Shown: positions 7,755 to 36,909 of the stretch, one piece after another
Position numbering within the stretch: the first letter of the stretch is position 1
Layout: each line of letters starts with the position of its first letter
NCBI GenBank assembly: GCA_963701855.1
Contig: CAVPBK010000012.1
Coordinates: 32,001-96,000, forward strand
Direction: 5' to 3'
Source of the DNA: Nitrospirota bacterium
GTDB taxonomy: Bacteria; Nitrospirota; Nitrospiria; Nitrospirales; Nitrospiraceae
DNA: 64,000 nt
Made by a program: the position numbers and the translations under genes
The notes under the pieces: generated by a model
The model's input: only the letters and a program-made list of their open reading frames with translations
What the model was told of the DNA's origin: nothing
Database searches by the model: none

Positions 7755-7775
7755 AGGAGCCTCGTATGGTGGCCC

Positions 7776-7804
7776 AGTTTAGGAGGGTGAGGATCAAACC
7801 GCAA
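7776..7804 (-). promoter_or_regulatory. Promoter module A, copy 1 (TTGCGG-17-TAAACT)
   Basis: Aligns with eight other copies in the island. Confidence 0.55.
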
Positions 7805-7839
7805 GACGGGGAACTGAGAAATGGTTGTTTTGAACCACG

Positions 7840-7935
7840 TTCAGGATAGTAATGCCGCTGAGGCGGATGCGTTCAAGGTGGTGGTTGTGCAGGACTTCGA
7901 GGAGCTGGCCATCGGAAATGTTGGCGGCGAGGTCG
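7840..7935 (-). pseudogene. Thermonuclease 5' fragment
   Basis: DG.LLEVLHNHHLERIRLSGI, matching the N-terminal part of the intact copy. Confidence 0.65.
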
Positions 7936-7995
7936 GTGGGGCGAGGAGTTTAGGTCCATTGCTCTCCTGGTCGTTTTTCTGCAGTGTCGGCACCC

Positions 7996-8922
7996 TCACA
8001 TCCCCCCTCGTTCAGCTCGGGGGATGGTGAGTTTCGCCTCAATAAACTCTCGATGTGCCAGCTTCAGGCTTTTCGCGATGAATAGAATCATCTTAATTTC
8101 CTCAGAAGACGTGGTCTGCGCCGCGTTGGCCACCTGAAATAAGACGCGCACGAAATCATTCCGTTCTTGGCGCGTGGTCTGATCAAAGAAATTCCTGGCC
8201 AGGCGAACGACATCCAATCCTTTGACCGCTTGCGAACACCCAATCTCGGTTACCAGATGGGCCTCAAGATCTGAAAGGGCCCAGCCTTCTTTCAGGGCCT
8301 GGGTCATTGTGCGCTTCTCTTCTGGCGCGACCTCGCGATCCGCCCATGCCACATGCGCCATCAGCCCAGCGGCTAAGCATAGCTTGCGGATCTGGGCATC
8401 GGGCAGGGTGACCTGCTGCCCGCGCTTTTCCAACTCGGTGACGAGATGGTAATACACGCGGTTTTTAATGAAATCATCTAACCGCTCTTCTCTACTGAGT
8501 TCAGCCCCAACTTTGCTTCGCCGTTTCCCCATCGCGCCGTGAATGGTTTTGGTGAGGTGTGCCAGTAGCCCGGTTGAGGCACCCTCCACATCGTGTTTGA
8601 CCTGCGCGAGGGCCGTGGCTTCTGCGGGCGTCAACGCACCATCCGCTTCTACCAGCCTCGTGACGGTGTCGATGACCAACTGCTTCTCTTCTGTCCAGCG
8701 AATGGCGCTGACCACCCGTTTCAGCAGTTCCTCCCGTTCCTCAGGAGTGACCGGCGAATCCATGTATATCTCAAGTTGTTGCCAATCCTCTCCGGTCAGG
8801 TCGGGAATTACAAAGAGCAGATCTTTGACGGCATTGCGTTCCTCATGGACAAGCGTTCCATCTGCCCAGGCGACCGCAATGACCAGTTTTGCGAGATCTA
8901 AAACAAATTGCTTCTCCGCCAT
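7996..8922 (-). CDS. TerB-family protein with two TerB-like domains
   Basis: VAWADG...EE and VAWADREVAPEEK repeats. Confidence 0.8.
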   Translation of the reverse strand: MAEKQFVLDLAKLVIAVAWADGTLVHEERNAVKDLLFVIPDLTGEDWQQLEIYMDSPVTPEEREELLKRVVSAIRWTEEKQLVIDTVTRLVEADGALTPAEATALAQVKHDVEGASTGLLAHLTKTIHGAMGKRRSKVGAELSREERLDDFIKNRVYYHLVTELEKRGQQVTLPDAQIRKLCLAAGLMAHVAWADREVAPEEKRTMTQALKEGWALSDLEAHLVTEIGCSQAVKGLDVVRLARNFFDQTTRQERNDFVRVLFQVANAAQTTSSEEIKMILFIAKSLKLAHREFIEAKLTIPRAERGGM

Positions 8923-8975
8923 CCGGCCCTCGGTTGCTTCGTGAAATCATCAGCGACAGATTATGATTCGGACCA

Positions 8976-9004
8976 AGGCTAGACGGCTCGTAAGGAGGTG
9001 TCAA
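8976..9004 (-). promoter_or_regulatory. Promoter family B copy (TTGACA-17-TAGCCT) upstream of the TerB gene
   Basis: Shares cgccTTGACAcctcc with 5038-5066. Confidence 0.65.
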
Positions 9005-9034
9005 GGCGGGTCGTCCAGGACCGTTGGTGGCTTT

Positions 9035-9170
9035 CTGCCTCTCCCTGCCGCCACTCCCACGGCGGCACCGGCTGCGGATCGGCCTACAATTCTCTCCTGG
9101 CTTCTCGCTCCTCCTTCTCCAACCCTTCCAGCACCGTATCCCCTGGCGCATACTTCCGATACCTCCAGCG
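9035..9170 (-). pseudogene. Thermonuclease 3' fragment
   Basis: YRKYAPGDTVLEGLEKEAREARR..ADPQPVPPWEW. Confidence 0.8.
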
Positions 9171-9199
9171 GGAATGAGACCATAATGGCTCTCTCTGAG

Positions 9200-10331
9200 T
9201 CATGAGTTCAATTCCAACTCTACCGTTGCTGTAGCGAAGGAGTACTCCAGTCGAGAGAGACAATCAGGCCTACGCTTGGTATCTTCCGTGCCGATACCAC
9301 TTCGAAAACGCGCCACGAGATGTTCTCTGGCTGAATTAGACTGGGCTTCCCACCAACTCGGACGAAAATATGTATTCTCTAAATGCTCACATGCGAGATG
9401 AAATGCGGCGTTTGCCATGGTGCCCTTGGGCAGCGCTCTAAATGAGTCAATAAAGAGTTCTGTGGGACCCTGAGACCTACCTGTCCAGCCTAGAACTGCG
9501 ATGGATTTCCCACCGACCACTGTGAGGTTAAAGCTAACGTGTTCAAACTCGCTCTCTCCTCGCGTGATGATTTGTAGTGCGTTACCATTGAAATCAAATT
9601 GAGGGTGAAAAGCCCCACAGGCGACTATGGGTAGGGCGCTTGAGAACATTACGCTATAAAACGAAAAATCATCGAAATTTCCGTTTAGGAATGCTGCATC
9701 ATACTTGCCCTTCCAGCCGTCAAGATCCCTAATGCCCCGTTTAATACCTTCACGAATGAGATGCAAAGATTGCTGCTTTGCGCACTGCATTTCAAATGGA
9801 TCGCCTTTATCTGCTTGCCTCTGAACTTCTATCGCGCGTAGCGCCGCGTCCTTCATGAGCCTTTCGTAACATATTGCTCTAAAGGAAAGCAGGAATGCAG
9901 CCTGTTTGTCCAAAGTGATTGAGGATTTTTCAATTGGTGAGAACAGTTCATCGTCATGAGCACCACAGAACCCCGTGAAGGTGGACGCATCCTTCACACC
10001 GCACAGACACGGAACAATTTTGCCGTCGTTCTTCACAATATTCTGAAAGCCGAGCTTAGGAGAAAGAACATGGCCCTCCTCCGCAATAGCCGCCAAGCCG
10101 CCCTTGCGTTGCACAGTATGCGCGCGAATGATGTTTTGGCTACAAGTCGCTGCGCTGGCTTGTGGGTGTAGACAGTAGCCTCGTGACATCTCCGCTCGTT
10201 GATCCGCTATCAGTTTTCCGATGGGATAGGCTTCTGATACTCGCGATCACGATGACATTTTTCCATTTCTTGCCCGATCCGCACCAGCAAAGGACATTGA
10301 CGGGCATTTGCATGCGGGGTTGCAGCAACAT
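9200..10331 (-). pseudogene. SEC-C motif-containing protein, frameshifted near the 5' end
   Basis: CWCGSGKKWK(K)CH lies in frames upstream of ORF 9200..10189; visibly more AT-rich than its flanks. Confidence 0.7.
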
Positions 10332-10642: not shown

Positions 10643-11035
10643 TCACTTCTTGCCGCAGGCAAATTCCCACAAAGTTTGACCGATACTTTCTGGCACAACT
10701 GGTTCCCACTTTTGTTCGTTCGAGTTGACCGAAACCACCGTACCGTTGCCCATATTGCCAGAGAACTGAGTGGCCGCAAGAGTCCTCGTGCGCTCTTCGG
10801 CACAACTAAATTCCCGTTGCTTTTTGGTAGACAAAAACGAGGTGTTCTCCACGGTTTGTACAGTCTTGAAATCGTTCAATTGCCACATCTTCACCAAATC
10901 CCCCTTGCGGCGCACGGTATCTGGATTGACGTAGGTAGTCATTCCAATCTGGTCGTTGCCACCAACCGCCACCCATTCTGCATACGCTGGTCCACTACTC
11001 AGCACCAGGAGTGTGATCAGGAACAGTCGTTTCAT
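10643..11035 (-). CDS. Surface-adhesin-E-like secreted protein, copy 1
   Basis: AEWV...PDTVRRKGDLVKMW...C...F.GNMG.G...W.P...ACGKK scaffold. Confidence 0.75.
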   Translation of the reverse strand: MKRLFLITLLVLSSGPAYAEWVAVGGNDQIGMTTYVNPDTVRRKGDLVKMWQLNDFKTVQTVENTSFLSTKKQREFSCAEERTRTLAATQFSGNMGNGTVVSVNSNEQKWEPVVPESIGQTLWEFACGKK

Positions 11036-11132
11036 GTGAATCCCTCTGCGGAAGGCATGGTCACGAGGCCTTGAAGGGGGAAGCGATGGTAATGGCGAAT
11101 TGAGAAGGGCATAGGGCCTCGCAGGGAAGCGC

Positions 11133-11162
11133 ATTCTAGTCGGATGTCGGCGTGAGGAGCAA
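11133..11162 (-). promoter_or_regulatory. Promoter module A, copy 2 (TTGCTC-18-TAGAAT)
   Basis: Followed by the shared tccctgcgaggcc..atgcccttctc leader. Confidence 0.55.
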
Positions 11163-11277
11163 GCGAGGGCACTAGGGGATTTCACAGTGCCGTAAATATC
11201 TGCGCAACCTTAACATTTAGCTCATCCCACGGTTCCCTATATGGCTGTTATTGAAACTGTCAGCAAGGAGGATGTAA

Positions 11278-11730: not shown

Positions 11731-11818
11731 AGCCACTGGGAGGGTGGTCGATTCATGAGAGTCGGCTACCCACGTTTCTCCCGATGCGCGAGGGCACGGG
11801 GGCCTCGCAGGGAGGCCT

Positions 11819-11848
11819 ATTCTGGAAGGGAAGCGAAGGAAGGCCCAA
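11819..11848 (-). promoter_or_regulatory. Promoter module A, copy 3 (degenerate)
   Basis: TTGGGC-18-CAGAAT plus the shared leader. Confidence 0.4.
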
Positions 11849-12049
11849 GGGCGATCCGCGAGAGAATGGACGTAGTTGATCAACGGTCGAGAACTCGTGA
11901 CTTCCTCCACTTCCACGGTTCCACGGCGGCAACGGCTGGGGATCAGCTCTCTTATGTTTTCGGATCACCACTATTTTTGGTAAGTCCGCGCATCTCTTGA
12001 AGAATAGCCACGCCCCCCATTCCACTCCATCCTGCGCTACTATTATACG

Positions 12050-12436
12050 ATGGCTCAGTGGACACAACAGACCAGGGAAGATAGTCCGGGGTTTAATACG
12101 AGGTTTACTATTGACTGTGTGCTTCCGCTCGCTAGCACCCAGCTTCAAGCGGACGGGTGCGTGCTCGAAAATATAGAGGATGGACATAAGCTCATCACCC
12201 CTGAGTACCTGAGAGCAGGGGATCTTGTGAAAATCCAATTATGGTTGGAAGGTGAGGAGGCCTTTGTAGACATCCCGCTGGCGGTAGTCAGTAAGGTTCA
12301 GGCCCCTTGGATCACGGTAGGTGTGATCCGGGTGAGCCCACCTGACCAGTTAAGATTGAAACAATTTATCCAGACCCCAGCAGCCATACACATTAAAAAA
12401 CCTGCTCTCATCGACCAACTTCTCATTCGGGCATAG
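12050..12436 (+). CDS. PilZ-like domain protein
   Basis: RF...C...G.V.NI..G...GD.V.I.L.L pattern; 3' end duplicated at 1..42. Confidence 0.6.
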   Translation: MAQWTQQTREDSPGFNTRFTIDCVLPLASTQLQADGCVLENIEDGHKLITPEYLRAGDLVKIQLWLEGEEAFVDIPLAVVSKVQAPWITVGVIRVSPPDQLRLKQFIQTPAAIHIKKPALIDQLLIRA

Positions 12437-12479
12437 TTCGTCGATTGTTGTGGGGGGGTGGAATGAGCCGGCCCGTCAC

Positions 12480-12971
12480 GCGCCGCTCACCTACGCCCCT
12501 TTCGCCACTCCCACGGCGGCAGGGGATACGGGTCGGCCCACAGGCCTCGCCACGCTTCCGTGCCTCAGTCTCCAACTGTTCCAGCGCGACATTCCTCGGC
12601 ACATACTTCCGATACCACCAGCACCATCCGTCTTTGACCAACGTGTGATTCATGTTGGTGCCATCAGGCAGGATCACATCGGCAAGGGTGCGCTTGTACT
12701 TGTCGTAGCCGTGCGTCTGGATTGTGACTTCTTTGCCAAAGGCGAGGTCAGAGGCGGCCTGCTTTGCACGATGGCCGAAGGCTTGGCCTTTCTCAGGGCA
12801 GTCGATGCCACTGAGGCGGACACGCTCAGCATGGTGGCCATTCAGTACTTCGATGATGTCGTCATCGAGGACGGAGACAACGGGGCCGGTGAAGTCAGCG
12901 AAGGCCAGTGCAGGAAGAAGCGACAAGAATGTCGCGAATATGAGAGATGGCCGTATTGAGAAGGGTGTCAT
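12480..12971 (-). pseudogene. Thermonuclease family gene, frameshifted near the 3' end
   Basis: RVRLSGIDCPEKGQAFG, DKYKRTLADV; the PWEW tail is out of frame. Confidence 0.85.
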
Positions 12972-13476
12972 CGCTGTCTTTCGGCGGAACGCTCCAAACC
13001 GTGCCATGTCCATCGGGCACATAGCTAGCTGAAAACCGCACATCTCCCTCCTCCCTCTTAGACGCGGCAACCTTGGTCAGTCACGGGCTGACCCCCCGAC
13101 TCGCCATGATCCATCAAGGGTTATCGGCACTTCTCCTCCGTTGCTCCGCCACATGCCCGCCAAGGAATCCCCTAATTTCAACGGACTGCGACCAACGGAT
13201 TGAAGTGAACGAGGACGGCATGCTCTGTGCCTTACGACGATGCTGTAGGCACAATTCACGTGAGCAGTTTGAGGATTGTGCATATTTTTTTGAAAGGAGA
13301 CACACCATGACGATGATCGATGCGGTGTTGTTCAATGGTTCGCAGTATATCGTGTCGCTTGGACTCTTGGCCCTGGCGTGGGCAACGTTGCAGAGCAAAA
13401 ATACATGAACGCAGAGTTCGGCGGCGCGCACTGTTTGTAGCGTGAACGGTATTCACCACTAACCCAAGGAGGTCCC

Positions 13477-13767
13477 ATGATATCCATTCCCCAAGTTGGC
13501 AGCATCCTGTGTGGCATGGCGTTACTCTTGACTGCGTCCTACGCGGTCGCGCAAGCGCCGAATGACCCGACGCACAACCGGACCATCAAGGGCGACGTAG
13601 CGCGCATCGACTATGCGTACTATGTCGTCAAGGAGCAGGACGGCCGGGAAGTGCGCGTGCATGCAGATAAGACGACGCAGATGATGGGACAGCTCAAGCA
13701 GGGCGATCGTGTTGAAGCGGAAGTCACCGCTGAGAACCACATCCTGCGGATGCGTCCACTCCCCTGA
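13477..13767 (+). CDS. Secreted small beta-rich protein
   Basis: AAGGAGG RBS, signal peptide, TIKGDVARID...GDRVEAEV. Confidence 0.8.
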   Translation: MISIPQVGSILCGMALLLTASYAVAQAPNDPTHNRTIKGDVARIDYAYYVVKEQDGREVRVHADKTTQMMGQLKQGDRVEAEVTAENHILRMRPLP

Positions 13768-13777
13768 GTCAATCTCT

Positions 13778-13829
13778 CATGGCCGCGGAAGGATGTGTTT
13801 TTGAGCTAGCGCATCCTTCCGCGGCCATG
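13778..13829. terminator. Perfect 18-bp inverted repeat (hairpin) between paralogs
   Basis: catggccgcggaaggatg / catccttccgcggccatg. Confidence 0.6.
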
Positions 13830-13913
13830 GTCGACCTTGATGATCTTTTCCGAATAGGCGTGACCAATTCCCCACTCACTCGGTCTGCGCTTACAACAAC
13901 CAAGGAGGTTGCC

Positions 13914-14285
13914 ATGTTATCTATGCTGAAAGCCATCGGTGCTCTGTCTTGTGGTTTCGTGCTGTGCGTGAGTTTGCCCAACACCACACAGGCCATCAAC
14001 AATCTGGCGCAAGAATTGGAACAACAAGAAGCTGACGAGCAAGCCGACAGGCTATCCGGTGCGGTGAAACAAGAGAAGGAAACACCGACGGGCGCCATCA
14101 CAGTTCGAGGTGAAGTGTTACGCATTAAACGCAATAACTATTTGATCAGGAAATTTACTGGTGACGTAGAACACTTGCATCTCGACGACAACACTCAAAA
14201 GACCGAGACTATTCGCCAAGGGGATCGGATTGTGGCGAAGGTGGACGATCAGAGGCATGTGTTGCTGATTGGACCGATTCAATAA
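13914..14285 (+). CDS. Secreted small beta-rich protein
   Basis: AAGGAGG RBS; paralog of 583..987. Confidence 0.8.
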   Translation: MLSMLKAIGALSCGFVLCVSLPNTTQAINNLAQELEQQEADEQADRLSGAVKQEKETPTGAITVRGEVLRIKRNNYLIRKFTGDVEHLHLDDNTQKTETIRQGDRIVAKVDDQRHVLLIGPIQ

Positions 14286-14299
14286 ACCGTTCCACTGCC

Positions 14300-14774
14300 G
14301 GTGCTGCTGCGAGAGACCCACGGGGGGGTTAGGCGAGGGATCAGCCCAGAGACCTTGCTTGGCCTCCCGTGTGTTCGTCTTTAGCTTCTCCAGTTCCGTA
14401 TCGAGCGGCGCATACTTCCGATACCACCAGCACCAGCCGTCTTTGACCAGCATGTGATTGACGTTGGTACCATCCAGCAGGAGCACATCGGCTAGGGTGC
14501 GCTTGTACTTGTCGTAACCGTGCGTCTGAAGGGTCACGTCTTGGCCAAATGCGAGTGCTGAGGCCGACTGTTTGGCTTTTTGACCAAAGGCTTGGCCTTT
14601 CTCAGGGCAGTCGATGCCGCTGAGGCGGAAGCGTTCAGCATGGTGGCCGTTTAGCACTTCGATGGTGTCGCCGTCGAGAACACTGACGACAGGGCCAGTG
14701 AAGTCGGCGAAAGCGACGGTTGGCGGTAACAGTATCAGCGAGAGAACAACAACTAGGCGCAACTGGCGTGGCAT
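14300..14774 (-). pseudogene. Thermonuclease family gene with a disrupted C-terminus
   Basis: DGDTIEV, GIDCPE, DKYKRT motifs; the WEWRK tail is missing. Confidence 0.8.
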
Positions 14775-14895
14775 AGACAGGCCTTCCAGCATGGGGAATC
14801 GATAGCTCAGGCTGATCCCCTGGGCCTGCTCCCGCTGAGCAAGAGGATGAACCGGCTTGCCGAGCGCCTCTCCCTCACCGGGTTAGGTTGGGTGG

Positions 14896-15351
14896 TTATC
14901 CGAGTTTGTTAAGCTCGTCATCATGCTTTTTTAATAGGACTTCTGTTTGACGCATTCTCTCTTTACTGTCGCGATCACAGTGATCGAAATGTGCCCTGGC
15001 CTTGTCCCAATCTGAGCGGCTTACTACCTTGCGTTGTGGTATCCCTTTGTCATGGTAGTCAATCACAAAGACGCTGCCGTTCTCGGAGCACTTCTCCATG
15101 TCCTCAAGTTTCATATGCGTCCCAGCTATCCATGTCTCTTGAGTATAGCCGGTCTCAGGATTCAGTATGTGCGCGGTGACGGATTGATTACCTGACTTCA
15201 CCACTTTAAATACTCCTTCCTCCCCCTTTTGCATCTTCTCCCGCCACGCCTTCGTGACGACCACATCCTTCATGATGCCGTTTTCTTGTTCAATCTGAAT
15301 GGTCATCTTTTCGCCAAACATCGCATCAAATAATCCTGTACTAAACTTCAT
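14896..15351 (-). CDS. Hypothetical protein
   Basis: Open 151-aa ORF; no recognised motif. Confidence 0.6.
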   Translation of the reverse strand: MKFSTGLFDAMFGEKMTIQIEQENGIMKDVVVTKAWREKMQKGEEGVFKVVKSGNQSVTAHILNPETGYTQETWIAGTHMKLEDMEKCSENGSVFVIDYHDKGIPQRKVVSRSDWDKARAHFDHCDRDSKERMRQTEVLLKKHDDELNKLG

Positions 15352-15369
15352 CTCACCCCCATTGGTTAC

Positions 15370-15445
15370 ACGCAATCTCCCACATGTTGGAGACGGTGGC
15401 TTCTTCTATGGACATGATCTCGTGTTTGGGGAGTTGTCGTTCATG
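15370..15445 (-). pseudogene. 5' fragment of the MSIEEATVSNMWEIA hypothetical gene
   Basis: Matches about 10520-10570. Confidence 0.55.
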
Positions 15446-15550
15446 GCGTAAACTCGTGTTTTCTGTTTCACCACAGTCTGGACCTTGATCGTGTCGTAGG
15501 TGGCCTCCCGCACTGATGATACTCCTCTTGATCATCATGAACATTGACCG

Positions 15551-15934
15551 CTATCTCTCAGGACTATCCCGACAAGCTTTCCGCAAGGCCTGGTAGAGGG
15601 CCCGGTGGACCATGAGGAGATGTCGCTCGCTCGGTCTGGCATCCAGCTCTGCCTTGAGTATGTCCCGTATCTGATCGGAAGTCATTCCTGCAACGCAGGG
15701 GTTGATCCAGAACAAGCCTGGCGTCTTCAGTGTGGCAGCGAGATCTAACCCATCCGCGACACCCATGGCATACGTGGCTTGCTCGGTTTTATTTAGCCCC
15801 AACCAATCATTGCCACTCATGAACCCTTTGGGCACATGTGCTTCATCAAGGCCCATCTCGGCTGTGGAAGAGAGAGCAGTGCCGAGTAGTAATCCGAGAA
15901 CCAATGGCGCTAGCCCAAGAATGTATTTCAACAT
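15551..15934 (-). CDS. Secreted protein, possibly Rap1a-like immunity fold
   Basis: Signal peptide; SGND...YAMGVADG...C...T.DQI....RP.ERH pattern. Confidence 0.5.
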   Translation of the reverse strand: MLKYILGLAPLVLGLLLGTALSSTAEMGLDEAHVPKGFMSGNDWLGLNKTEQATYAMGVADGLDLAATLKTPGLFWINPCVAGMTSDQIRDILKAELDARPSERHLLMVHRALYQALRKACRDSPER

Positions 15935-16045
15935 ATGCCCTCCTCGGAAGACGCGGTCTCATGAGCAGTGATGCATGCTCGTCTCTTTGGTGTCATCCGT
16001 CACAAGAGCTGGCTTACCGAAAATAGAGGTCTCGCAGGGAGGCAT

Positions 16046-16074
16046 ATTGTAGGAAGGGGACGATCAAACCGCAA
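16046..16074 (-). promoter_or_regulatory. Promoter module A, copy 4 (TTGCGG-17-TACAAT)
   Basis: Near-consensus hexamers plus the shared leader. Confidence 0.65.
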
Positions 16075-16197
16075 GGCGGGGCGTGGGGAATTGGTGGTAT
16101 TGATTGGAGGAACTTTTCTGGATGGCAGGTTACTTTTCAGGTCTGGATAAACCTCTTACTGACAACTATGTGCCGATCGATTTCTTGTTGCGTCCAC

Positions 16198-16704
16198 TCA
16201 ACGGTTCAGTTTCCGCCACTCCCACGGCGGCACGGGTTGCGGATCAGCCCACAAGCCTTTCCTCGCTTGGCGTGCCTCCGCCTCTAGCTTCTCTAGGACT
16301 GTATCCCCTGGCTCATACTTGCGATACCACCAGCAACAACCGTCTTTGACAAGCGTCTGGTTGACGTTCGATCCATCGGACAGAAGCACATCGGCCAGAG
16401 TGCGCTTGTACTTGTCATAGCCGTGCGTCTGGAGCGTGACGTCTTTCCCAAAGACTAAGGCTGACGCAGCCTGCTTGGCCTGCTTGCCGAACGCTTGGCC
16501 TTTCTTCGGGCAATCGATGCCGCTGAGGCGGATACGCTCAGTATGGTGGCCGTTCAGGACTTCGATCGTGTCGCGGTCAATTACCCCGACGACTCTTCCG
16601 GTGAAGTCGGCAGCAAGGCCCAGAACCGGACACAGCAGAACGATGTAAATGAACCAAAGAATTACTGCGGCTAAGAACAAAGTGGAGGGCGGTAAGAACC
16701 TCAC
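16198..16704 (-). CDS. Thermonuclease (SNase-like) protein, full length
   Basis: DRDTIEV, RIRLSGIDCP, DKYKRTLA, GLWADPQPVPPWEWRK. Confidence 0.88.
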   Translation of the reverse strand: MRFLPPSTLFLAAVILWFIYIVLLCPVLGLAADFTGRVVGVIDRDTIEVLNGHHTERIRLSGIDCPKKGQAFGKQAKQAASALVFGKDVTLQTHGYDKYKRTLADVLLSDGSNVNQTLVKDGCCWWYRKYEPGDTVLEKLEAEARQARKGLWADPQPVPPWEWRKLNR

Positions 16705-17755: not shown

Positions 17756-18055
17756 CTACTTCTGCTTCGCCACAATCTTGTATTTGATCCCCTCATACGT
17801 GGCTCGTGGAAGAATCTTCTTCTGCACCAACTCATCTTTCCGTGCATACGGTCGGCCCTTAATGATCTTTTCAGAGTACGCATCGCTAATACCGGGGAGC
17901 GCCTTGAGTTGGTCGGCGGTGGCCGTGTTGAGGTCGAGGAGATCGTCTTTCTCAGCCGCAGCGAGGACAGGGCCGGGACTGAGCGGGACAGACACAATGA
18001 GTCCCGTGATGGCAAACAGAAAGAATGCGCCGATGAACACACGTAGACCAGTCAT
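17756..18055 (-). CDS. ComEA-like helix-hairpin-helix protein
   Basis: LDLNTATADQLKALPGI..KIIKGRPY. Confidence 0.88.
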   Translation of the reverse strand: MTGLRVFIGAFFLFAITGLIVSVPLSPGPVLAAAEKDDLLDLNTATADQLKALPGISDAYSEKIIKGRPYARKDELVQKKILPRATYEGIKYKIVAKQK

Positions 18056-18420
18056 GATGCTGTCTCCTTCATTGGTGTGAGATCGTTCCTCACTTGTCGA
18101 ACCTGGACCTCGATCTTCCGTGCAAGCGCCTGCCCCTGCCGACTGAGCGACAAACGCACGGCACGACTATCCGTGACCGAACGACGCTTCCTGACCCAGC
18201 GTTTCCCCGCGAGGTCCTTCGCTACCACACTCAACGTCGGGAGTGTCACGAGGAGCGCGGTTGCGGCATCCGTCAGCTTGGCATCCATGTGCCGTTGCAG
18301 ATAGAGGAGCACGCCCGCTTGGAGCGGTGTCACGCGGATCGAGTCCAATCGTCGTCTGAACTAGCCGTGCAACTGCAACACCAGTTCCAGGAGTGTCAGC
18401 GCCTCATGGCCATTGTGCAT
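18052..18420 (-). pseudogene. MarR-family regulator with an in-frame stop at 18361-18363
   Basis: VTPLQAGVLLYL...R.RS.TD.R.V.L.LS; TAG after LQLHG. Confidence 0.75.
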
Positions 18421-18507
18421 GACGCCTCGCATAGTTAGTGCCTCGTCCCCTTCGCTACCCGCTGCCCCACCTCAATAAGCCGCCTCAACCATTTGAGCAC
18501 TACGCGA

Positions 18508-18972
18508 TCACTTCTTGCCACATGCAAGTTTCCATTCCCGTTTACCAAGAGTTTCTGGTGCAATTGGTATCCACTGGCCTTCCGCTAAGCTTGACGAAAC
18601 CACCTTACCTTTTCCCATGTTGCCAGCCATCTCGAAAATTGAATTCGTCCGAACGCGCTCTCCTTTGCAGTCGTACTCACTTCGCATCTTCGTAGAAAAA
18701 ACAGCGTCGCGTCCCGTGGTTATAGGAGTCTTGTAGTCATACAAGAGCCATATCTTCACCAGATTTCCGTTGCGACGAATGGTGTCTGGATCGAAGTGCA
18801 CCGTCATCCCGTCGGCTTCGGTAAGCCTCACCCATTCCGCATTCGCTGGAACAGTATTCAGCAGTAGGAGAGTTGTCATTGCCCAGAAGCTCAAAAAGAA
18901 GAGTGGCCCCGCGTTGTTCGTAACGGCGCAGTGCGCAGGAAAGCGACGGTGTGGGCGAATCGAGAAGGGCAT
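18508..18972 (-). CDS. Adhesin-E-like protein, copy 2, fused behind a PilZ-gene 5' leader
   Basis: MPFSIRPHRRFPAHCAVT start, then AEWV...DPDTIRRNG...ACGKK. Confidence 0.72.
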   Translation of the reverse strand: MPFSIRPHRRFPAHCAVTNNAGPLFFLSFWAMTTLLLLNTVPANAEWVRLTEADGMTVHFDPDTIRRNGNLVKIWLLYDYKTPITTGRDAVFSTKMRSEYDCKGERVRTNSIFEMAGNMGKGKVVSSSLAEGQWIPIAPETLGKREWKLACGKK

Positions 18973-18994
18973 AGAGGCCTCGCAGGGAGAGGGT

Positions 18995-19024
18995 AGTGTA
19001 GGAGGGAAACGAACTATGGTGCAA
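18995..19024 (-). promoter_or_regulatory. Promoter module A, copy 5 (TTGCAC-18-TACACT)
   Basis: Aligns with the other copies. Confidence 0.6.
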
Positions 19025-19043
19025 GGGCCGATGCGATTGGTTA

Positions 19044-24585: not shown

Positions 24586-24800
24586 GCAGGAAATCCTCGC
24601 ACAGCCCGCGGCCGGGCCCAAGCGTCATTACCGAAACATGACCCCAAGCACGGTGCCGGTCGCGACGATGACACCCCGGGCCAGCAATGCCTCGAAGAGC
24701 GAGCGCATTTCAGCCATGGTCTTTACCCCTTCATGTTGAAGATAGCGCCGATTGGGCATTTCGCAAACCTCGGAGTCACCCTAGAAGTGAAAGGAACATC

Positions 24801-27135: not shown

Positions 27136-28895
27136 TCATCCAAAGGCCGTGAGATTCCCAGGGGTTTGCCTTATGCGATAGGCCATCGCATGGTCCGACA
27201 TCCCACGGAAGTGTTCCATTCCGACGAGAACACAGGTGTGCCCATCTCTGATGGCTGTATCTTGGAAATGGTGCAAATATTCCATGGTCGTGTGGTCAAC
27301 GATCTTGCCGGCCAAAATAAGCATATAGTCGGCTTTGGTGCCTTCCGGGACCACGATCTTCTTGAGTTCCGCGTCGAGTTTCACCAGATTCATGCAGGTG
27401 ACTGACGAGAGGTAAATCTTGTAGGGATTCTTCATCTCACCGATAGTGCCCCGTAGTACTGCATTGGCCGCGACGGTCATCACCTCACGCGCACCACGGC
27501 CGTCCCCGATGCGGATGACCGGATTGCGGAACAATTCCTTGAGTGCGGCCCCCACCCCCTCAACTGGAGAGGCCTTTATGATATCTTTCGCGAGGATGAC
27601 CATTTTCGTCAGCGTACCGACAATCATCCCCTCCAGCAGGTCTGAGGTCGCTAACGTCACCACCAGATTGACCACGGCAATACAAATCTGTTCCTTACCC
27701 ACCGAGAAGATCCGGATGAAAACTTTGTGCGAGACCAGTTTCCATCCAACCCACATGAGCAGCGCCGCCAAGGCCGTTTTCGGGATTTGATTGATCAGGG
27801 TTGTGGCGTACAACAGGAAGAACAACTGAAAGATCGCATAATAGAAGTTGGCCCAGAGGGTGCGGCCCCCGACGAGCATGTTGGTCGTACTCTTCATTCC
27901 ACCGGGAATGATGGTCAACCCCCCCAACATACTGGAGCAGGTGTTGGAGACCCCCATGGCCCGCAAGGTGACATTGGGGTTCGACTTGCGTTTAAACGGA
28001 TCGATTTTATCGATAGCTTGGATCGTGGCAAGCGACTCGACCCCGTCGATCAGGGTCAGCGTAACAATGGTGACTAGGTAGCTCCACCATAATTCTGTTC
28101 GTTCCCAGGCCTCCGTCCAATGGGGAAAGACGATCCCATGTTCAAAGACATCGCTGGGGACCTTGATGAGATACTTCTCCTCGAGTCCGATGAGCCACGC
28201 CACCAAGCCGGACAGGCTGATCACGATCAGGGGCACCGGAATGAATTTCGTCCAGGGCTTCTGTATACGGGCGAGCATACTGGTAATAAAAAAAGGAGGA
28301 AGAGGCTCACGGCTCCGATGGCGAAGATCAGCGGTGTCATGTCCATGACCTGTTCGGGAATCAGCGAGATGGCTTTGGGAATGGATTTGATGGGTGGCGT
28401 GATGTACCCAACAAATGCCGGGACCTGTTTGATGATGATCAGGCTGCCGATCGCCATCAACATGCCTTCGACCACCGAGATGGGAAAAAACAGCGCGAAT
28501 CGCCCCGCATGGAAGATGCTTAAGATCACCTGCACGACGCCGACAATGCTGATGGCCACTAGCAAAAGTGGATAGCCCACCTCCAAATTTCCATTCCCCA
28601 ACAAGATCATGCCGGCCAAGATCGCCGGCGCCAGGCCGGCGGCCGGCCCGCTGATCGTGAGATAGGCCCCCCCGAGGAAGGGAAAGATAAAGCCGGCAAT
28701 GATCGCCGAAATCAGCCCGCAGACAGGAGGCGCACCGGAGGCAATCGCAATACCAAGCGAGAGCGGGATGCCCATCATGGCGATTTGCAGACCCGCCATG
28801 AGGTCGTACCGCCAATGCTTCAACCCCGCCACCCCGTTTTGGGGTTTCTCCTTTTCTGGAACATCGTGCTGCTCCGGGGTAATGTCTTCTGGCAT
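27136..28895 (-). pseudogene. SulP-family anion transporter, frameshifted at the poly-A run near 28290
   Basis: DLMAGL..PLSLGIAIASGAPP, ISGPAAG; the C-terminal half is in another frame. Confidence 0.88.
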
Positions 28896-29000
28896 ATATG
28901 ACCCTAGAATTTCGGCCCTAGGTCCGTGTTCTTTTCACATTCACCGCAGATTCTGGTCACCAGCAAGTCCTTCCTTTTCCTCTTCGAAGATCATGGCCGG

Positions 29001-29030
29001 ATTGTAGGAGGGAACCGAACGAAGGCGCAA
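29001..29030 (-). promoter_or_regulatory. Promoter module A, copy 6 (TTGCGC-18-TACAAT)
   Basis: Upstream of SulP; nearly identical to 36757-36786. Confidence 0.65.
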
Positions 29031-29067
29031 GGGCTACCGGCGCTACGTGGGGCACTAGCCATAGCGA

Positions 29068-29190: not shown

Positions 29191-29199
29191 GGATACCCA

Positions 29200-29589: not shown

Positions 29590-29699
29590 GGCGTGAGACC
29601 TCCGATTGAAGTGAGGTGCGCAGGTTACCGGGCATGCTAACAGGAGAGGGCGATGTGCGGAACTAGGAAATGGCCTACGAAACCTGCCAGGAGCCAGAA

Positions 29700-33133: not shown

Positions 33134-33463
33134 ATGCCTAAAACCACAACCGAGCGAGTACAAGCGTTCCGCGCTCGACAAGCCGTCAAGACCGCACCGG
33201 CCAAGACAGCCGGGAAGCGTGTCACCCGCCTCCTTGTTGATCATCCGGAGAAGAGGGCGAAGTTCGATGCCTTTATGATTCAGATGAATAGGGAGCTGCA
33301 GATAGTAAACGCCAAGCCGCAAAGCCGATCACCGCGTAGCAACGTCTACTTCCCAGGGTTCCGCTGCTTCTTCTCGTCTTGGATTCTGTCTGATCGAGCG
33401 AATGATATACCACGCGAGTACTCTTTAAGCAGCCCACCACACTTAAGCTTAGTATGCATGTGA
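33134..33463 (+). CDS. Small basic hypothetical protein (true end uncertain)
   Basis: GAGGAG RBS; T.TERVQAFRARQ motif; overlaps the convergent SIR2-like tail. Confidence 0.5.
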   Translation: MPKTTTERVQAFRARQAVKTAPAKTAGKRVTRLLVDHPEKRAKFDAFMIQMNRELQIVNAKPQSRSPRSNVYFPGFRCFFSSWILSDRANDIPREYSLSSPPHLSLVCM

Positions 33464-33933
33464 ATATTTCCCACAGGAATTCCACTCTTAGATTCCAACT
33501 CAGCAGAAATATCCTTGGCATCACTCTCTGATATGCCATACGCCGTTGCAAATATTCGACGGTGGCTAAACATCTCTGGGGGTGTGGAACTTGGCAACAA
33601 GAGATCTACATTCAAGTGGTGGAAGGCAAAGCCAAGGAACACAAGCCTGTGTGACGACTTAATCTTCAATCGGATGGATTTCACGTCACTCGAAAGCTCA
33701 TCGGTCACTTCCGTAAACGTCTTAATCTGACTGGCCAGCGCGAGAAGCTGTTCCGGAGGCGGAGTCGCCCCGAACCCAATCGCATTGGTCTGACCAAGCC
33801 AATGGAGTGATCCGACAGTGCCGTAGGGGCGGTAGATTTCAAGCTTCTTAAGCAATGAGGCCGCGTCCGATTCGTGCATAAAGTAGTAGTTTTGGAGTCC
33901 GTAATATAGGTACTGCTCGATGCAGCGATCATA

Positions 33934-34477
33934 AATGAAGCTCCCCGCAGCAAGCTGCGGGGTATCACAGAACTAAAACATCCGGAGCTGACGAAGATCT
34001 TCCTGAGGCTGCCCTTGCCGCTGCACGTACCGTTCGACAGTCTGCCAGTTTGCCCGTTCCCCTACCGTGGCCACGTAGTACCCATCGGTCCAAAACTCCC
34101 CGCCCCACAGTACCCGCTTCACCGCGGGCTTTCGGCGAAAGATCTCCCGCGCCGTGATGCTCTTGAATATCTGCACAATCCGGCCTGGAGCTACTTTCGG
34201 ATGTGCACTGCAGAGCAGATGGATATGATTCTTGTCCGTCCCGATCGCCTCCATCTCGATCGGAAACCGTTCCGCGATCTCTGCCGCCGTCTCCTGGATA
34301 ATCGTCGTCACCACCTCATCCAACAGCGATTTCCGGTATTTCACGGGAAAAACAATATGGTAGTGGATTTGCCACGCACAGTGCGCTCCCTTTCTGCCTG
34401 CCTCGTCCCTCTGGTCCGCCATACTCCAGAGGGTACCAGAAAAGATTGTCCCCGTAGCAAGCTACGGGGAATCACAA
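33934..34477 (-). mobile_element. IS200/IS605-family element (tnpA only)
   Basis: Subterminal hairpins ccccgcagcaagctgcgggg (33943) and ccccgtagcaagctacgggg (34450); no target duplication. Confidence 0.92.
33973..34422 (-). CDS. tnpA: Y1 HUH transposase
   Basis: YHIVFPVKYR, HIH, FW..GYY, Y..RQ motifs. Confidence 0.95.
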   Translation of the reverse strand: MADQRDEAGRKGAHCAWQIHYHIVFPVKYRKSLLDEVVTTIIQETAAEIAERFPIEMEAIGTDKNHIHLLCSAHPKVAPGRIVQIFKSITAREIFRRKPAVKRVLWGGEFWTDGYYVATVGERANWQTVERYVQRQGQPQEDLRQLRMF

Positions 34478-35032
34478 GTTGAAAATCACGAGAACAACCG
34501 AACTTAGGCGCTCTTCAAGATCTGAGCGTCTGCAATTTCCAAGAAGGTGGCGAAAGAAATTGTTGAACCATGTGCTCTCAAGCCGCTCAAAGTTCATCGG
34601 ACCGTTGACGTGGACCGGCATAAAGAGAGTACTCTTCGACTCTGCTTCAAGAATTGTACGAACAATTGCAAGCTTCCCGCATAACTCAATCGCTTTGTCA
34701 CCGTTATGAATATCCAGGAAGGTGTCAATCGAGCCCGCCTGTGGCATTGCGTCATGGATGCGATAACTCGCCTGATGAAGTAAGTCTAAGTGGTCTGGAC
34801 GTGTAGGTTCTTTGGATGCCGCCAATTTAAGTGCGTCCCAAATGTGGCCGTCGCCGCTGACTCTTCGATAGAGTTGTTCAAACCGAAGATCGAGAGCCGT
34901 AGCTATTAAACTCCTGAGTTCGGAGCCGATGGGCAGGCCTACTTCGTTGCTTGCCCCTGCGCCGATAATGAAGACGGTCTTTTGAGTCTCTTTAATGGGT
35001 GAAGGGTCGCTCATCGGAGCCTCTCCGAGGGA

Positions 35033-35133
35033 GGCCCATTCTAGAAGGGTTACGAACGATGGCGCAAGGGCCGCAGGCGCGGAAGTCGGAACATCCGAAC
35101 GGGCGAACTGCGGAGTTCAATGAGGACAGTGAG
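35033..35133 (-). repeat. About 100-bp repeat containing promoter module A, copy 7 (TTGCGC-18-TAGAAT)
   Basis: Close match to 36278-36378; upstream of the SIR2-like gene. Confidence 0.85.
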
Positions 35134-35148
35134 GAGTAGGGTAGGCGA

Positions 35149-35553
35149 TTACTTCTTGCCGCACGTAACCTTCAAAATGCTTTGACCAATAGTTCCAGGT
35201 GCAATTGGACTCCACTTACCTTCATCGGAGTTGTTCACAAGCATATCGCCGGTTGCCATATTGTGCGAGAATCTTGTATACGCAAGTTGACGATAGCTTT
35301 CTTCCACGCAGTCCACTTGCACTTGCATACGGTCGGACAAATAGAAGACCGTGGTGTCCCCCGCTCTTTGAGCCAGCTTAAAGTCGAATAAGAACCACAT
35401 CTTCACCAGATCCCCTTTTCGTCGGATGGTCTCGGGGTCAGCGTACAACGTATACCCCTTGGCACCATCAGTGTAGCCAATTTCCACCCACTCCGCGTAC
35501 GCTGGCCCACCACACAGGAGAATCAGGAGTGTGATGAGGAGTGGTCGTGTCAT
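35149..35553 (-). CDS. Adhesin-E-like secreted protein, copy 3
   Basis: AEWV...DPETIRRKGDLVKMW...TCGKK. Confidence 0.78.
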   Translation of the reverse strand: MTRPLLITLLILLCGGPAYAEWVEIGYTDGAKGYTLYADPETIRRKGDLVKMWFLFDFKLAQRAGDTTVFYLSDRMQVQVDCVEESYRQLAYTRFSHNMATGDMLVNNSDEGKWSPIAPGTIGQSILKVTCGKK

Positions 35554-35597
35554 GCGAATTCCTCGGACTCAAAGTACACGGGACAGAGAAATTTCCT

Positions 35598-36248
35598 CTA
35601 CGGCTTTCTCTTTCTGGCTGGGACTCGCTTCCTAAGTTCTTTAATCTTTGAATCGTGCAGATAGACAGTTTCTATAATGTGTTCTGTGATATCCACAAGC
35701 GTGATCACATCAACAGTTTCTGGCGAGAAATCTCTATGAATCGTGGCATGCCCTGCCTCCAGGATGGTCTCCAATCTCTCGCGTTGAATTCGTGACACAT
35801 AGCCAAGCCCTTCGAATTTAGTAAGGTTCTTGACGAAACTTCCTTGGTCCCCTGATTTAGAAATCATGATCCTTTCAATCAGTGATCTAACCCCCATGGT
35901 TGCTAGCCTTCGAAGATCATTTTGAAGAGCTACATATATCTCACCCAGAAGGTCGCCTACAAATTGATCGACGGACGGGCGCCTCATTGCAGGGGAACTA
36001 AACCAATGGGGCCTAGGACGAGAGATAGCTGGTGGGAAGTATGTAATGGTTTCACCTTTATCTCCTGAAAACCACGAGGTATGCCGAAGTTTTATGCTAT
36101 CGCACCCCTGACACTTAAGCATTTCGTACTGGTTCCGGCCTGACAACTCTGAATAATCCTCATGCTCCCACGTTGTCTTTTCCGAATGAAGAACCTCGTG
36201 ATTGCGATCTCCGTTGCATAGATTACAGTGCGCTTTTGTTGAACTCAT
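35598..36248 (-). CDS. DUF4145 (HEPN-like) domain protein
   Basis: N-terminal CxxC pairs; LATMGVRSLIE...GHATIH. Confidence 0.7.
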   Translation of the reverse strand: MSSTKAHCNLCNGDRNHEVLHSEKTTWEHEDYSELSGRNQYEMLKCQGCDSIKLRHTSWFSGDKGETITYFPPAISRPRPHWFSSPAMRRPSVDQFVGDLLGEIYVALQNDLRRLATMGVRSLIERIMISKSGDQGSFVKNLTKFEGLGYVSRIQRERLETILEAGHATIHRDFSPETVDVITLVDITEHIIETVYLHDSKIKELRKRVPARKRKP

Positions 36249-36277
36249 TAGATTAGCCTATCCGGGAAAGATACCTT

Positions 36278-36378
36278 GGCCCATTCTAGAAGGGGTGCGA
36301 ACGACGGCGCAAGGGTCGCAGGCGCGGAAGTCGGAGCATCCTAACGGGCGAGCTGCGGAGTTCAACGAGGACAGCGAG
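36278..36378 (-). repeat. About 100-bp repeat containing promoter module A, copy 8
   Basis: Close match to 35033-35133; upstream of DUF4145. Confidence 0.85.
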
Positions 36379-36503
36379 TAGTCCGAACCTGTAGGAGCGA
36401 TGTCACCTGATGTCGTTCCTACTGGATGAAACTAGGGAACTTCCTGGTACCCTCTTGATCCGAACGGTCTACAATTCATGAGAATGATTTGAAAGAAAGT
36501 TAC

Positions 36504-36653
36504 ATGCCTCTAATAAGCTGTCCCAAGTGTGAGAGCGAAGTAAAGCCCATCGAGAGTTGGCGCATTACCGCTGACCTCAAAGTGGAAGAACCTCCTCAGC
36601 CCATGTGGGCCTGCCTCAATCCGACCTGCTTACACAAATGGCCAAAGTCGTAG
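36504..36653 (+). CDS. 49-aa zinc-ribbon-like protein (below the ORF-track cutoff)
   Basis: MPLISCPKCES...WACLNPTCLHKW. Confidence 0.55.
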   Translation: MPLISCPKCESEVKPIESWRITADLKVEEPPQPMWACLNPTCLHKWPKS

Positions 36654-36756
36654 ATTGGTTCATGCATCAGCTCGCGGAGAAGACCAAGCGTTTCAAGAAG
36701 TACAACACTAAGGCGCCAACTCTGAGGCTTCCTGTTTTTCTTCGACATCGGGCGAC

Positions 36757-36786
36757 ATTGTAGGAGGGAACCGAACGAACGCGCAA
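36757..36786 (-). promoter_or_regulatory. Promoter module A, copy 9 (TTGCGC-18-TACAAT)
   Basis: Matches 29001-29030; also abuts a DUF72 remnant (36795-36850). Confidence 0.65.
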
Positions 36787-36909
36787 GGGCCACCGGCGCG
36801 GGTCGGCGCACGCATGTCTCGGTGAACAATCAGGCGGAAGGAAACGCGCTTCCGCTCAGTGAGGTTCTTACCGAACCACGGAAGCCATCGCCGTTAACCG
36901 TGCAGAGGG

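Follow-up and report, generated by a model that had tools for sequence, protein, structure and literature searches.

Genetic organization of the tRNA-Glu islands

The analyzed DNA (64,000 nt; hereafter the window) is part of contig CAVPBK010000012.1 (assembly GCA_963701855.1; positions 32,001–96,000) of a Nitrospira genome. It contains stacked tRNA-Glu islands, which are chromosomal and lie beside conserved core genes. The island border is formed by a tRNA-Glu gene (39533..39610, minus strand), at the 3′ end of which homology to the core DNA of relatives ends; an Rfam scan gave tRNA as its only match. The DUF6538 and tyrosine integrase sequences of the youngest island occupy two ORFs (37871..39435, minus strand). 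A repeat of the tRNA-Glu 3′ end (23238..23254, minus strand), a remnant of an attachment site, separates two stacked islands, and a further such repeat lies outside the window (C12:23663). A large serine recombinase gene (21963..23159, plus strand) adjoins the remnant, and a terminase small subunit gene (terS; 24687..25322, plus strand), a hallmark of phage satellites, is also present. The window has thus kept an integrase, terS and a serine recombinase, and no replication genes were found in it. The recombinases and attachment repeats had been left out of the initial annotation. Three thermonuclease genes (12423–13070, 14118–14792 and 16198–16704; span 12423..16704, minus strand) and three further thermonuclease 3′ remnants (108–198, 1692–1819 and 9046–9173) were identified as well.

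These islands carry nine co-oriented copies of a short promoter-like module, all on the minus strand. The coordinates listed in the initial annotation (7776, 11133, 11819, 16046, 18995, 29001, 35038, 36283 and 36757) proved to be the last bases of the nine –10 hexamers. Each hexamer is preceded by a TTG-led –35 hexamer, with a spacer of 17 bp at 7776 and 16046 and of 18 bp at the other seven. The leader is retained, as had been noted, at 11133, 11819, 16046, 18995, 35038 and, in a degenerate form, 7776; the first codons of a PilZ gene also follow several copies (MPFSIR after 11133 and 18995, MPCSIR after 7776). The nine copies are 50–81% identical (mean 64%), and the median longest perfect run is 9 nt.

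Copy 1 (7535..7807; –10 TAAACT at 7776–7781) is followed by a frameshifted PilZ remnant. Copy 2 (11070..11165, right edge approximate; –10 TAGAAT at 11133–11138) has an MPFSIR stub and then an adhesin-E family gene (10643..11035; PF16747), whereas no clear ORF lies behind copy 3 (11795..11851), the –10 box of which is degenerate (CAGAAT). Copy 4 (16023..16077; TACAAT) lies just downstream of a thermonuclease gene and precedes an ORF with a hydrophobic N-terminus that is weakly Rap1a-like (15551..15934; Pfam E=0.0017, below cut-off). In copy 5 (18901..19027; TACACT), about 24 PilZ codons are in frame with adhesin-E, and this fusion opens a recurrent cargo string completed by MarR and helix-hairpin-helix genes (17756..18972). 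Copy 6 (28995..29043; TACAAT) comprises the promoter part only, abuts a plus-strand DUF72 3′ remnant and precedes a SulP gene split over two frames (27136..28895). Copy 7 (35014..35080; TAGAAT) supplies the ribosome-binding site (RBS) and ATG of a SIR2-like gene (33418..35014) interrupted by an IS200 element (about 33934–34484). Copy 8 (36278..36325; TAGAAT) shares 105 bp (90%) with copy 7, divergence beginning just past the –10 box, and heads a DUF4145 gene (35598..36248). Copy 9 (36755..36799; TACAAT), again the promoter part only, is followed by a 50-codon ORF.

The view that this cargo is unrelated was borne out in part. The DUF4145 assignment is solid, whereas the Rap1a and SIR2-like ones are weak: the latter protein had no Pfam match and no match among solved structures, and SIR2_2 was found on 10% of members in neighbouring Atlas clusters. 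Since adhesin-E lies behind both 11133 and 18995, the cargo of these two copies is not unrelated. PADLOC matched 1 of 18 cargo proteins, so the cargo does not consist mainly of known defence genes. Two segments of the window (~30.6–33.9 kb and 34.5–35.9 kb) had little or no cover in three of four DNA runs, with no joint across.

Structure and origin of the module

The module represents the 5′ part of a small PilZ gene and comprises a predicted –35 box, a spacer of 17–18 bp, a –10 box, an RBS and 0–100 PilZ codons. In a comparison of 189 copies, the position frequencies of the –10 box are T.97 A.98 C.69 A.97 A.97 T.97, and the spacer is 18 bp long in 131 copies and 17 bp in 40. Sequence information falls to near zero from ~17 bp upstream of the TTG, and an ATG is retained 18–27 nt past the –10 box in 144 of the 189 copies. 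At the level of sequence, the module thus has the form of a sigma70-type promoter repeat with an RBS and start codon. With only 3 of 6 positions of the –35 box in agreement with the E. coli consensus, a promoter scan based on that consensus called none of the copies. The same architecture was found upstream of 16 of the 46 tRNA/tmRNA genes of the source genome on the sense strand, compared with 4 on the antisense strand. The sigma70-type conservation, the resemblance to the genome's own tRNA upstream sites and the in-frame fusions suggest that the module may serve as an expression platform.

Among the PilZ fragments, 89 start at the gene start; 58 of these end within nt 20–80 and 16 are full length. 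The initial annotation had not recognized this PilZ origin, nor that the gene is carried on satellite-like islands that integrate at tRNA genes. This origin would account for odd Nitrospira proteins in which a PilZ-like leader is fused to unrelated domains, and caution is advised, as such N-termini are probably recombination scars.

A leader hairpin was considered and rejected, the inverted repeat showing 0 compensatory changes in 30 sequences. An AT-rich tract upstream of the –35 box is absent (44.9% AT, compared with an island average of 45.1%). A terminator stem-loop found no support either: a terminator-like site was located upstream of 7 of 187 copies, and its frequency among random windows was 1.8%.

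Distribution of the module

A profile built from the copies identified 42 modules in the source genome (E<0.01), 33 of them beyond the nine in the window; with the reversed genome, used as a chance control, no match below E=0.5 was obtained. The module is present in 54 of 60 genomes of the genus and in none of 120 genomes from other families. It lies mostly in island DNA and is not evenly spread through the core genome: the median distance of its copies to core interspersed repeats is 17 kb, whereas random points gave 5.6 kb. It is concentrated in plastic regions, before variable genes. A thermonuclease remnant occurs within 5 kb of 23 of the 42 copies (6% expected) and a tyrosine recombinase within 20 kb of 20 (14% expected), while neighbouring copies are co-oriented in 21 of 23 cases.

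In 8 of 9 relatives, no module was found in up to 20 kb beyond tRNA-Glu (one stretch covered only 2.6 kb); the site is thus not loaded in every case. No genome of the genus contains an extended portion of the window's array, the longest matches in other genomes being 1.2 and 1.0 kb. No match was obtained in a plasmid search, nor in viral contigs with the exact module pattern or the PilZ protein. The sole viral-contig match is a 10.9-kb database contig (L165) encoding an integrase, terS, DnaB, a replication initiator and a serine resolvase, with two module copies. Its 14 scanned ORFs included an integrase, replication genes and terS, and no capsid or tail gene was found among them, although the contig may be incomplete. 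This single contig places the module within the cargo arm of an element resembling phage satellites; the replication protein of L165 was matched in only 2 of 84 genomes of the genus. In the literature searched, mostly openly readable papers, no description of this module in Nitrospira was found.

Exchange of DNA at the module

The mobile islands of soil Nitrospira contain this short sequence, a predicted promoter plus gene start, dozens of times over, and the pattern across genomes shows that accessory genes are swapped, inserted and lost there. The proposal of the initial annotation that the module acts as a homology anchor is well supported by breakpoint enrichment over the control, by identity profiles that cross over inside the module, by recurring units and by one filled/empty pair. 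Alignments of shared DNA ended at modules 300 times and spanned them 46 times, compared with 681 ends and 1231 spans at random island points; these ratios overstate significance, since a module formed the centre of each fetched locus and related genomes are not independent samples. In pairs with common cargo (at least 85%), upstream homology was lost within 60 nt of the –10 box in 30 of 38 cases (15 independent groups). Cargo was also found to differ between genomes, as predicted: 35 of 43 pairs with common upstream DNA change cargo within 130 nt (11 independent groups).

Within a single genome, near-identical cargo also follows upstream regions that are unrelated (L039/L041, 100%). The first 600 nt of the cargo of copy 5 are, likewise, 96% identical to those of another copy (C3:161591), the upstream DNA being unrelated. 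In the opposite direction, the 462 bp upstream of copy 9 are 96% identical to C4:233565–234024, which diverges at the –10 box. Assembly chimeras formed at a short repeat could mimic such shuffling, since the majority of the genomes were assembled from metagenomes, and modules lie close to the ends of several contigs. We regard this explanation as extremely improbable: the copies are short and diverged, identical junctions recur in independent genomes, and the junctions at 29001, 36283 and 36757 were bridged by contigs of other DNA runs with 0–4 differences (one run may be the source sample).

The breakpoints are scattered over about 150 nt around the –10 box, the outermost lying 47 nt before it and 102 nt after it. 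This scatter argues against recognition of the –35/spacer core by an island tyrosine or serine recombinase, which would make the module a true integron analogue. Several features are compatible with such a cryptic site-specific system, namely the sharp left edge (7679 of 17766 pairs stop 25–30 nt upstream of the –10 box), conservation of the spacer beyond strict promoter need, recombinase genes adjoining many clusters, and copies too diverged for RecA. Nevertheless, the island recombinases already own tRNA attachment sites, the sole inverted repeat lacks covariation, and the absence of IntI noted initially was upheld (TIGR02249, best score 80.8 bits versus a cut-off of 265; genome 97% complete), which makes this system rather improbable.

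The combination of one sharp and one ragged end, as seen in the PilZ fragments, would also be expected if a one-ended or rolling-circle transposable element, with the module as its fixed end, carried along adjacent DNA of variable length. The common left extents, however, range from 5 to 47 nt with no single end base, neighbouring copies are predominantly co-oriented, the core genome is avoided, and the window's IS200 lies within a cargo gene and not at a module end. An element of this type is therefore very unlikely.

Recurrent cassettes and a filled/empty pair

Five families of module-to-module units recur, and both flanks differ in 7 of 14 pairs. A 438-bp module-headed cassette was found in 28 of 84 genomes of the genus; 18 of its 30 matches begin at the –35 box and none runs into either flank. 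Among 25 loci, this cassette has 17 left and 16 right flank families. In one filled/empty pair (C8:1524–4696 versus L021/L065), the 74-bp overlap is the module; an empty site was found in only 1 of 121 intervals tested. Four-combination cycles numbered none among 189 copies and one among 213. No module-to-module joint was present among the matches listed from four DNA runs, which also contained 151 loose ends. All 14 loci fetched for SulP relatives lack the module and have another start region, and both DUF4145 loci (2/2) lack it as well, in line with a capture of these genes behind the module.

Some of the cargo variety is of a simpler origin, which the initial annotation had overlooked, in that PilZ was deleted in front of an ancestral neighbour (e.g. 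a Sel1 gene) without any swapping. Passive erosion might explain the copies altogether: many related islands with a promoter-PilZ operon would have integrated and decayed, selection keeping the promoter and deletions pulling neighbours behind it, with copies that are by-products and no more recombinogenic than other repeated island gene ends. The PilZ-then-Sel1 arrangements and deletion variants, the stacking of islands indicated by the tRNA-Glu repeats, the about equally numerous thermonuclease and DUF72 remnants, the many broken cargo genes of the window and the location of 411 of 509 island breakpoints (81%) outside modules are all in agreement with this explanation. It is nevertheless unlikely, since deletion alone can neither place near-identical cargo behind unrelated upstream DNA (L039/L041; 18995/C3) nor account for one cassette in 17 left contexts together with the filled/empty pair. 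In addition, thermonuclease 3′ ends show no excess of breakpoints (3 of 509, versus 0.4% expected).

Proposed mechanism

Exchange by recombination is the reading that we consider fairly probable: the promoter, RBS and first codons of a small PilZ gene, from the cargo arm of phage-satellite-like elements that integrate at tRNA genes of the Nitrospiraceae, would have become the shared joint of a pool of cassettes. Illegitimate or microhomology recombination, or else a deletion of PilZ, may bring a foreign gene into place behind the module; the gene would thereby acquire a promoter, in many cases together with a start codon or an N-terminal leader. As their conservation suggests, selection would maintain the –35 box, –10 box and RBS, so that erosion of the flanks would halt at the –35 edge and a stub of PilZ would be left. 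Exchange is evident as a pattern across genomes: crossovers anywhere in the 50–130 bp of common sequence swap the DNA behind the predicted promoter, and between two co-oriented modules they delete or insert the intervening 0.2–8 kb unit. The arrays would travel from cell to cell with satellites, which would stack them at tRNA genes.

We propose that a dedicated integrase is not needed for exchange. With a mean identity of 64% and perfect runs of 9 nt, the window copies would be a poor substrate for RecA. The most likely enzyme would be a divergence-tolerant single-strand-annealing recombinase from helper phages, or RecA acting on more similar copies. RecT, Rad52/Rad22 and ERF recombinases were not found in the 97%-complete genome, and neither was ComEC.

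The module bears on how new genes may become expressed and rearranged in islands without integrons. As a joint whose copies can be counted, it yields concrete predictions on transcription starts, circles and crossover maps that can be tested in nitrifiers of ecological importance.

Comparison with known systems

Judging from its sequence, the module appears to work like the PeSL (promoter-early stem-loop) cassettes of T4, yet it is neither a PeSL nor an integron. Integrons are defined by IntI, attI and attC, and their cassettes depend on one Pc. The Nitrospira arrays are similarly co-oriented and composed of short, mostly single-gene units in many contexts; in contrast, they have no IntI and no fixed crossover base, and every unit has its own predicted promoter.

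PeSL cassettes are described in T4-type phages (PMC2839356, PMC4122927). According to the available sections of these papers, both systems have sigma70-type promoter repeats by the dozen, each closed by an RBS and a start codon (the promoter being predicted here) and concentrated in plastic regions before orphan genes, and both show gain, loss and replacement through repeat recombination without an integrase. Indels and replacements that break inside the repeat, one criterion for PeSL, were found in Nitrospira as well. Unlike PeSL, as those sections present them, the Nitrospira repeats are located in tRNA islands of a bacterial chromosome, stem from the 5′ part of a protein-coding gene, in many cases provide an N-terminal leader, and lack both the terminator stem-loop and the AT-rich upstream tract; mini-circles and measured promoter activity are reported for PeSL, whereas the module is known from sequence alone. 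The 2010 PeSL paper states that its authors had no evidence for this kind of plasticity among cellular organisms. It is conceivable, though we hold this only tentatively, that a lineage of soil Nitrospira uses the module for integrase-free, integron-like gene capture on its chromosome: promoter-headed cassettes would leave as small circles via module recombination and re-enter, already expressed, at any of up to ~40 modules, with phage satellites ferrying them between cells. The module would then be a cellular counterpart of phage PeSLs, arisen from the start of a gene of the c-di-GMP receptor family.

The excerpted text on PICI-like satellites and tycheposons (bioRxiv 10.1101/2020.12.28.424599) describes a tRNA-targeting integrase, partial tRNA repeats, terS, a DnaB helicase, a small serine recombinase and cargo, with islands built by stacking. 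These hallmarks and stacked islands also occur here, as does integration at a tRNA 3′ end with a direct repeat, a criterion for PICI-like elements; the likeness is one of gene content. A repeated promoter joint in the cargo is a Nitrospira feature, not described for tycheposons in that text.

Rad52-like phage recombinases, as summarized in the source (PMC3945230), carry out relaxed recombination, accepting diverged homology where mobile DNA recombines with remnants; in contrast to that case, none was found encoded in the source genome. The immunity arrays of the V. cholerae T6SS were built by homology-facilitated illegitimate recombination (PMC5361080, available text), and they illustrate that a conserved upstream anchor plus a non-homologous downstream junction can build arrays. 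They concern one locus and one functional class according to that text, whereas a Nitrospira genome can hold as many as 44 anchors with heterogeneous cargo, and ComEC was not found in the source genome. The S. aureus lpl cluster, according to the available part of the report (PMC2568036), shuffles at a conserved intragenic segment. It resembles the module in using a short conserved segment as a crossover site within an island, and differs in that lpl shuffling is confined to one paralogue family.

Identification of the module and its promoter signature

Nine co-oriented promoter copies had been proposed in the initial annotation, and each coordinate (7776, 11133, 11819, 16046, 18995, 29001, 35038, 36283 and 36757) was found to be the last base of a minus-strand -10 hexamer, preceded at 17 or 18 bp by a TTG-led hexamer. 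A profile made from these copies, with one refinement round, detected 42 copies in the window's genome at E<0.01 and, in the reversed genome, no match below E=0.5; alignment added one degenerate copy (C4:233565; C denotes contigs of this genome, C12 being that of the window). The proposed co-orientation also held: all 13 C12 copies are minus-strand, and among neighbours less than 15 kb apart 21 of 23 are co-oriented. Identity among the nine window copies is 64% and their perfect runs are short; genome-wide, 13 of 42 copies share at least 23 identical bases with a partner. Three window junctions are bridged, almost without differences, by contigs of other DNA runs, and an artefact is hardly credible as the source of the pattern.

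The module is the 5′ end of a PilZ transcription unit. Intact 110-aa PilZ genes still follow two copies (C6:1518665 and C6:1582413), and 89 of 106 PilZ-like DNA fragments in the genome and the fetched loci start where the gene does; of these 89, 58 stop within nt 20–80 and 16 are full length. In 189 distinct copies, T, A, A, A and T of the -10 box are conserved with position 3 free, the spacer is 18 bp (131 copies) or 17 bp (40), and information drops to about zero ~17 bp upstream of the TTG, a conservation that is partly built in since the copies were chosen by the profile. An ATG 18–27 nt after the -10 box is kept in 144 of them. The TTG/17–18/TAnnnT architecture also occurs upstream of tRNA/tmRNA genes (16 of 46 on the sense strand vs 4 antisense). 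These sequence features (conserved -10 box and spacer, kept ATG, shared architecture) make it likely that the module functions as a promoter. In four copies (window 29001 and 36757, C3:156445, and L124:4978 from a fetched locus) the ATG lies only 5–9 nt after the -10 box, as it would in leaderless transcripts.

Distribution and genomic location

The organism is a Nitrospira. Searching GTDB for the exact pattern gave 52 loci, namely 45 labelled Nitrospirota, 4 unlabelled and 3 on Acidobacteria-labelled contigs (L048, L049 and L072), the last reflecting mis-binning or transfer between phyla. The module is present in 54 of 60 genus genomes (0–44 copies each) and in 9 of 20 from the family, and is absent from all 120 genomes taken from other families. 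Within the window's genome, the copies stay clear of the core and are clustered near thermonuclease remnants and tyrosine recombinases.

The window's island begins at a tRNA-Glu 3′ end, where homology with relatives stops. This end is repeated at window 23241 and C12:23663, marking three or more stacked insertions, of which the first two hold four and six module copies. The island region carries genes for a tyrosine integrase and a large serine recombinase as well as terS. An IMG/VR contig (L165) encodes an integrase, terS, DnaB, an O-like replication initiator and a serine resolvase, with two module copies in its cargo arm; on this one contig, the gene set resembles that of PICI-like satellites/tycheposons as portrayed in passages of bioRxiv 10.1101/2020.12.28.424599.

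Thermonuclease sequences gave 29 matches in the genome, many of them 3′ halves only, and diverge directly past the C-terminal motif; those on C12 are all on the minus strand (window 108–198, 1692–1819, 9046–9173 and 12423–16704), and others lie in further islands. DUF72 3′ remnants are repeated on the plus strand (window 20599–20784, 29060–29193, 29699–29808, 30413–30459 and 36788–36858), the sole intact copy (C3:156711–157502) being divergent from a module copy. The island also contains a SRAP-umuD-umuC mutagenesis operon (window 2630–5034; umuC spans two ORFs) and a plus-strand 128-aa ORF (window 12050–12436) with no family match; on visual inspection this ORF looks PilZ-like, and its DNA is found again in many genomes of the genus, breaking off sharply at the stop codon. 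Three repeats like a tRNA 3′ end (50435–50479, 52055–52099 and 60922–60966), one of them adjoining an integrase fragment (60422–60910), have no full tRNA to go with them in the window and mark another set of stacked islands.

Probable exchange of flanking DNA at the module

The names given to the cargo genes were upheld; however, adhesin-E lies behind two copies, the Rap1a and SIR2 calls are weak, and SulP and the SIR2-like gene are broken. Many cargo ORFs are in-frame fusions, the PilZ leader at their start being followed by unrelated domains. Of 119 candidate downstream ORFs, 87 were scanned against Pfam; more than half of these have no match, and the matches of the remainder include adhesin-E, Sel1, Slp, PilZ, Usp, Abi-alpha, Cu/Zn-SOD, Crp, CsgG and pyruvate kinase. 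Relatives of SulP (14 of 14 loci) and DUF4145 (2 of 2) lack the module.

Grouped by flank, the 189 copies form 153 upstream and 147 downstream families. Where cargo is shared at ≥85%, upstream homology is lost within 60 nt of the -10 box in 30 of 38 pairs; identity is still close to background at the -35 box and is high once the -10 box is reached. Where upstream DNA is shared, cargo changes within 130 nt in 35 of 43 pairs, identity falling from 0.9 to background after the -10 box. These switches represent 15 (same cargo) and 11 (same upstream) independent groups. The window offers such cases: the cargo sequences at 18995 and C3:161591 agree at 96%, with the break at the -10 box. Copies 35038 and 36283 have upstream DNA in common and diverge after this box, and copy 36757 and C4 match over 462 bp (96%) and diverge at it.

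Between island loci, 300 alignments end at modules and 46 span them, compared to 681 and 1231 for random island points. Module windows contain 98 of 509 distinct alignment ends (6.7% expected) and, in a smaller test, 15 of 83 (6.3% expected); because all loci were retrieved by way of a module and are not mutually independent, these ratios are indications, not probabilities. The other 411 of 509 ends lie outside module windows, several module-Sel1 junctions look like PilZ deletions, and full PilZ genes have recurring downstream neighbours such as Sel1. Passive erosion would account for such junctions, but as an explanation of the whole it is rather unlikely.

Module-headed cassettes

Co-oriented modules delimit 74 intervals (median 1.2 kb). 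For 123 of 185 copies, a same-strand ORF ends no more than 150 nt upstream (41% for random windows), an excess expected for head-to-tail units. Five interval families recur as whole units, with both flanks different in 7 of 14 pairs. A 438-bp C3 unit, whose gene specifies a small membrane protein of unknown family, occurs in 28 of 84 genus genomes. Of its 30 matches, 18 start at the -35 box, 29 end between the gene stop and the PilZ stub of the second module, and none extends into a flank. Twenty-seven loci were examined, one of them a duplicate, and the 25 whose flanks were long enough represent 17 left and 16 right flank families. At three loci the gene has no module on either side, which suggests the pre-capture state. 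One-ended transposition is a very improbable origin of these patterns. Of 121 intervals, one gave a filled/empty pair: two C8 modules enclose 3172 bp that are absent from two fetched loci (L021/L065), where one module joins the same two flanks, the two alignments overlapping by 74 bp.

Repetition, island location, within-module crossovers, recurring module-headed units and this pair, all patterns in sequence, suggest that the module is probably the exchange joint of a promoter-headed cassette pool in islands. Selection would act on promoter activity, cargo would be captured by illegitimate joining, much as in the anchor-plus-illegitimate-junction models sketched in parts of PMC5361080, and arrays may pass through circular intermediates and be transported by satellites. 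Since crossovers are scattered in diverged 50–130 bp repeats, relaxed homologous recombination of the Rad52-like phage recombinase type, reported in PMC3945230, would fit. No RecT, Rad52/Rad22, ERF or ComEC match was found in the window's genome, so helper phages would have to supply such a recombinase. The rows shown for four DNA runs contained no module-to-module joint.

As initially claimed, no IntI was found in the window's genome, and the crossover position is not fixed; assignment to integrons was therefore rejected, and a cryptic site-specific system, in which such a position would be expected, is distinctly unlikely. The module works like the PeSL (promoter-early stem-loop) cassettes of T4-type phages, as these are presented in portions of PMC2839356 and PMC4122927, but is excluded from that class, lacking both terminator and AT-rich tract and not residing in a T4 phage. 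The 2010 PeSL paper (PMC2839356) reports having no evidence for plasticity of this kind in cellular organisms, and our literature search found no account of this Nitrospira module.

Other repeated sequences

The genome-wide core contains several hundred interspersed REP/MITE-like repeats of 100–200 bp with up to ~130 BLAST partners (in the window, 40877–41138, 43106–43213 and 49996–50192); no interspersed repeat of that copy number occurs in the C12 island. A second island promoter is repeated as well, TTGACA-led and with a C-rich spacer that is conserved; it is located at window 5031–5071 and 20337–20377 (weak copy 8974–9008) and also on C3, C6, C9, C11 and C14. It has 9 genome copies at E<1e-6, two preceding SRAP genes, and coincides with 10 of 509 breakpoints (0.6% expected). 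The 3′ part of a small ORF with NP-rich peptide repeats occurs twice (window 5043–5295 and 20349–20601), each time directly before this promoter repeat.
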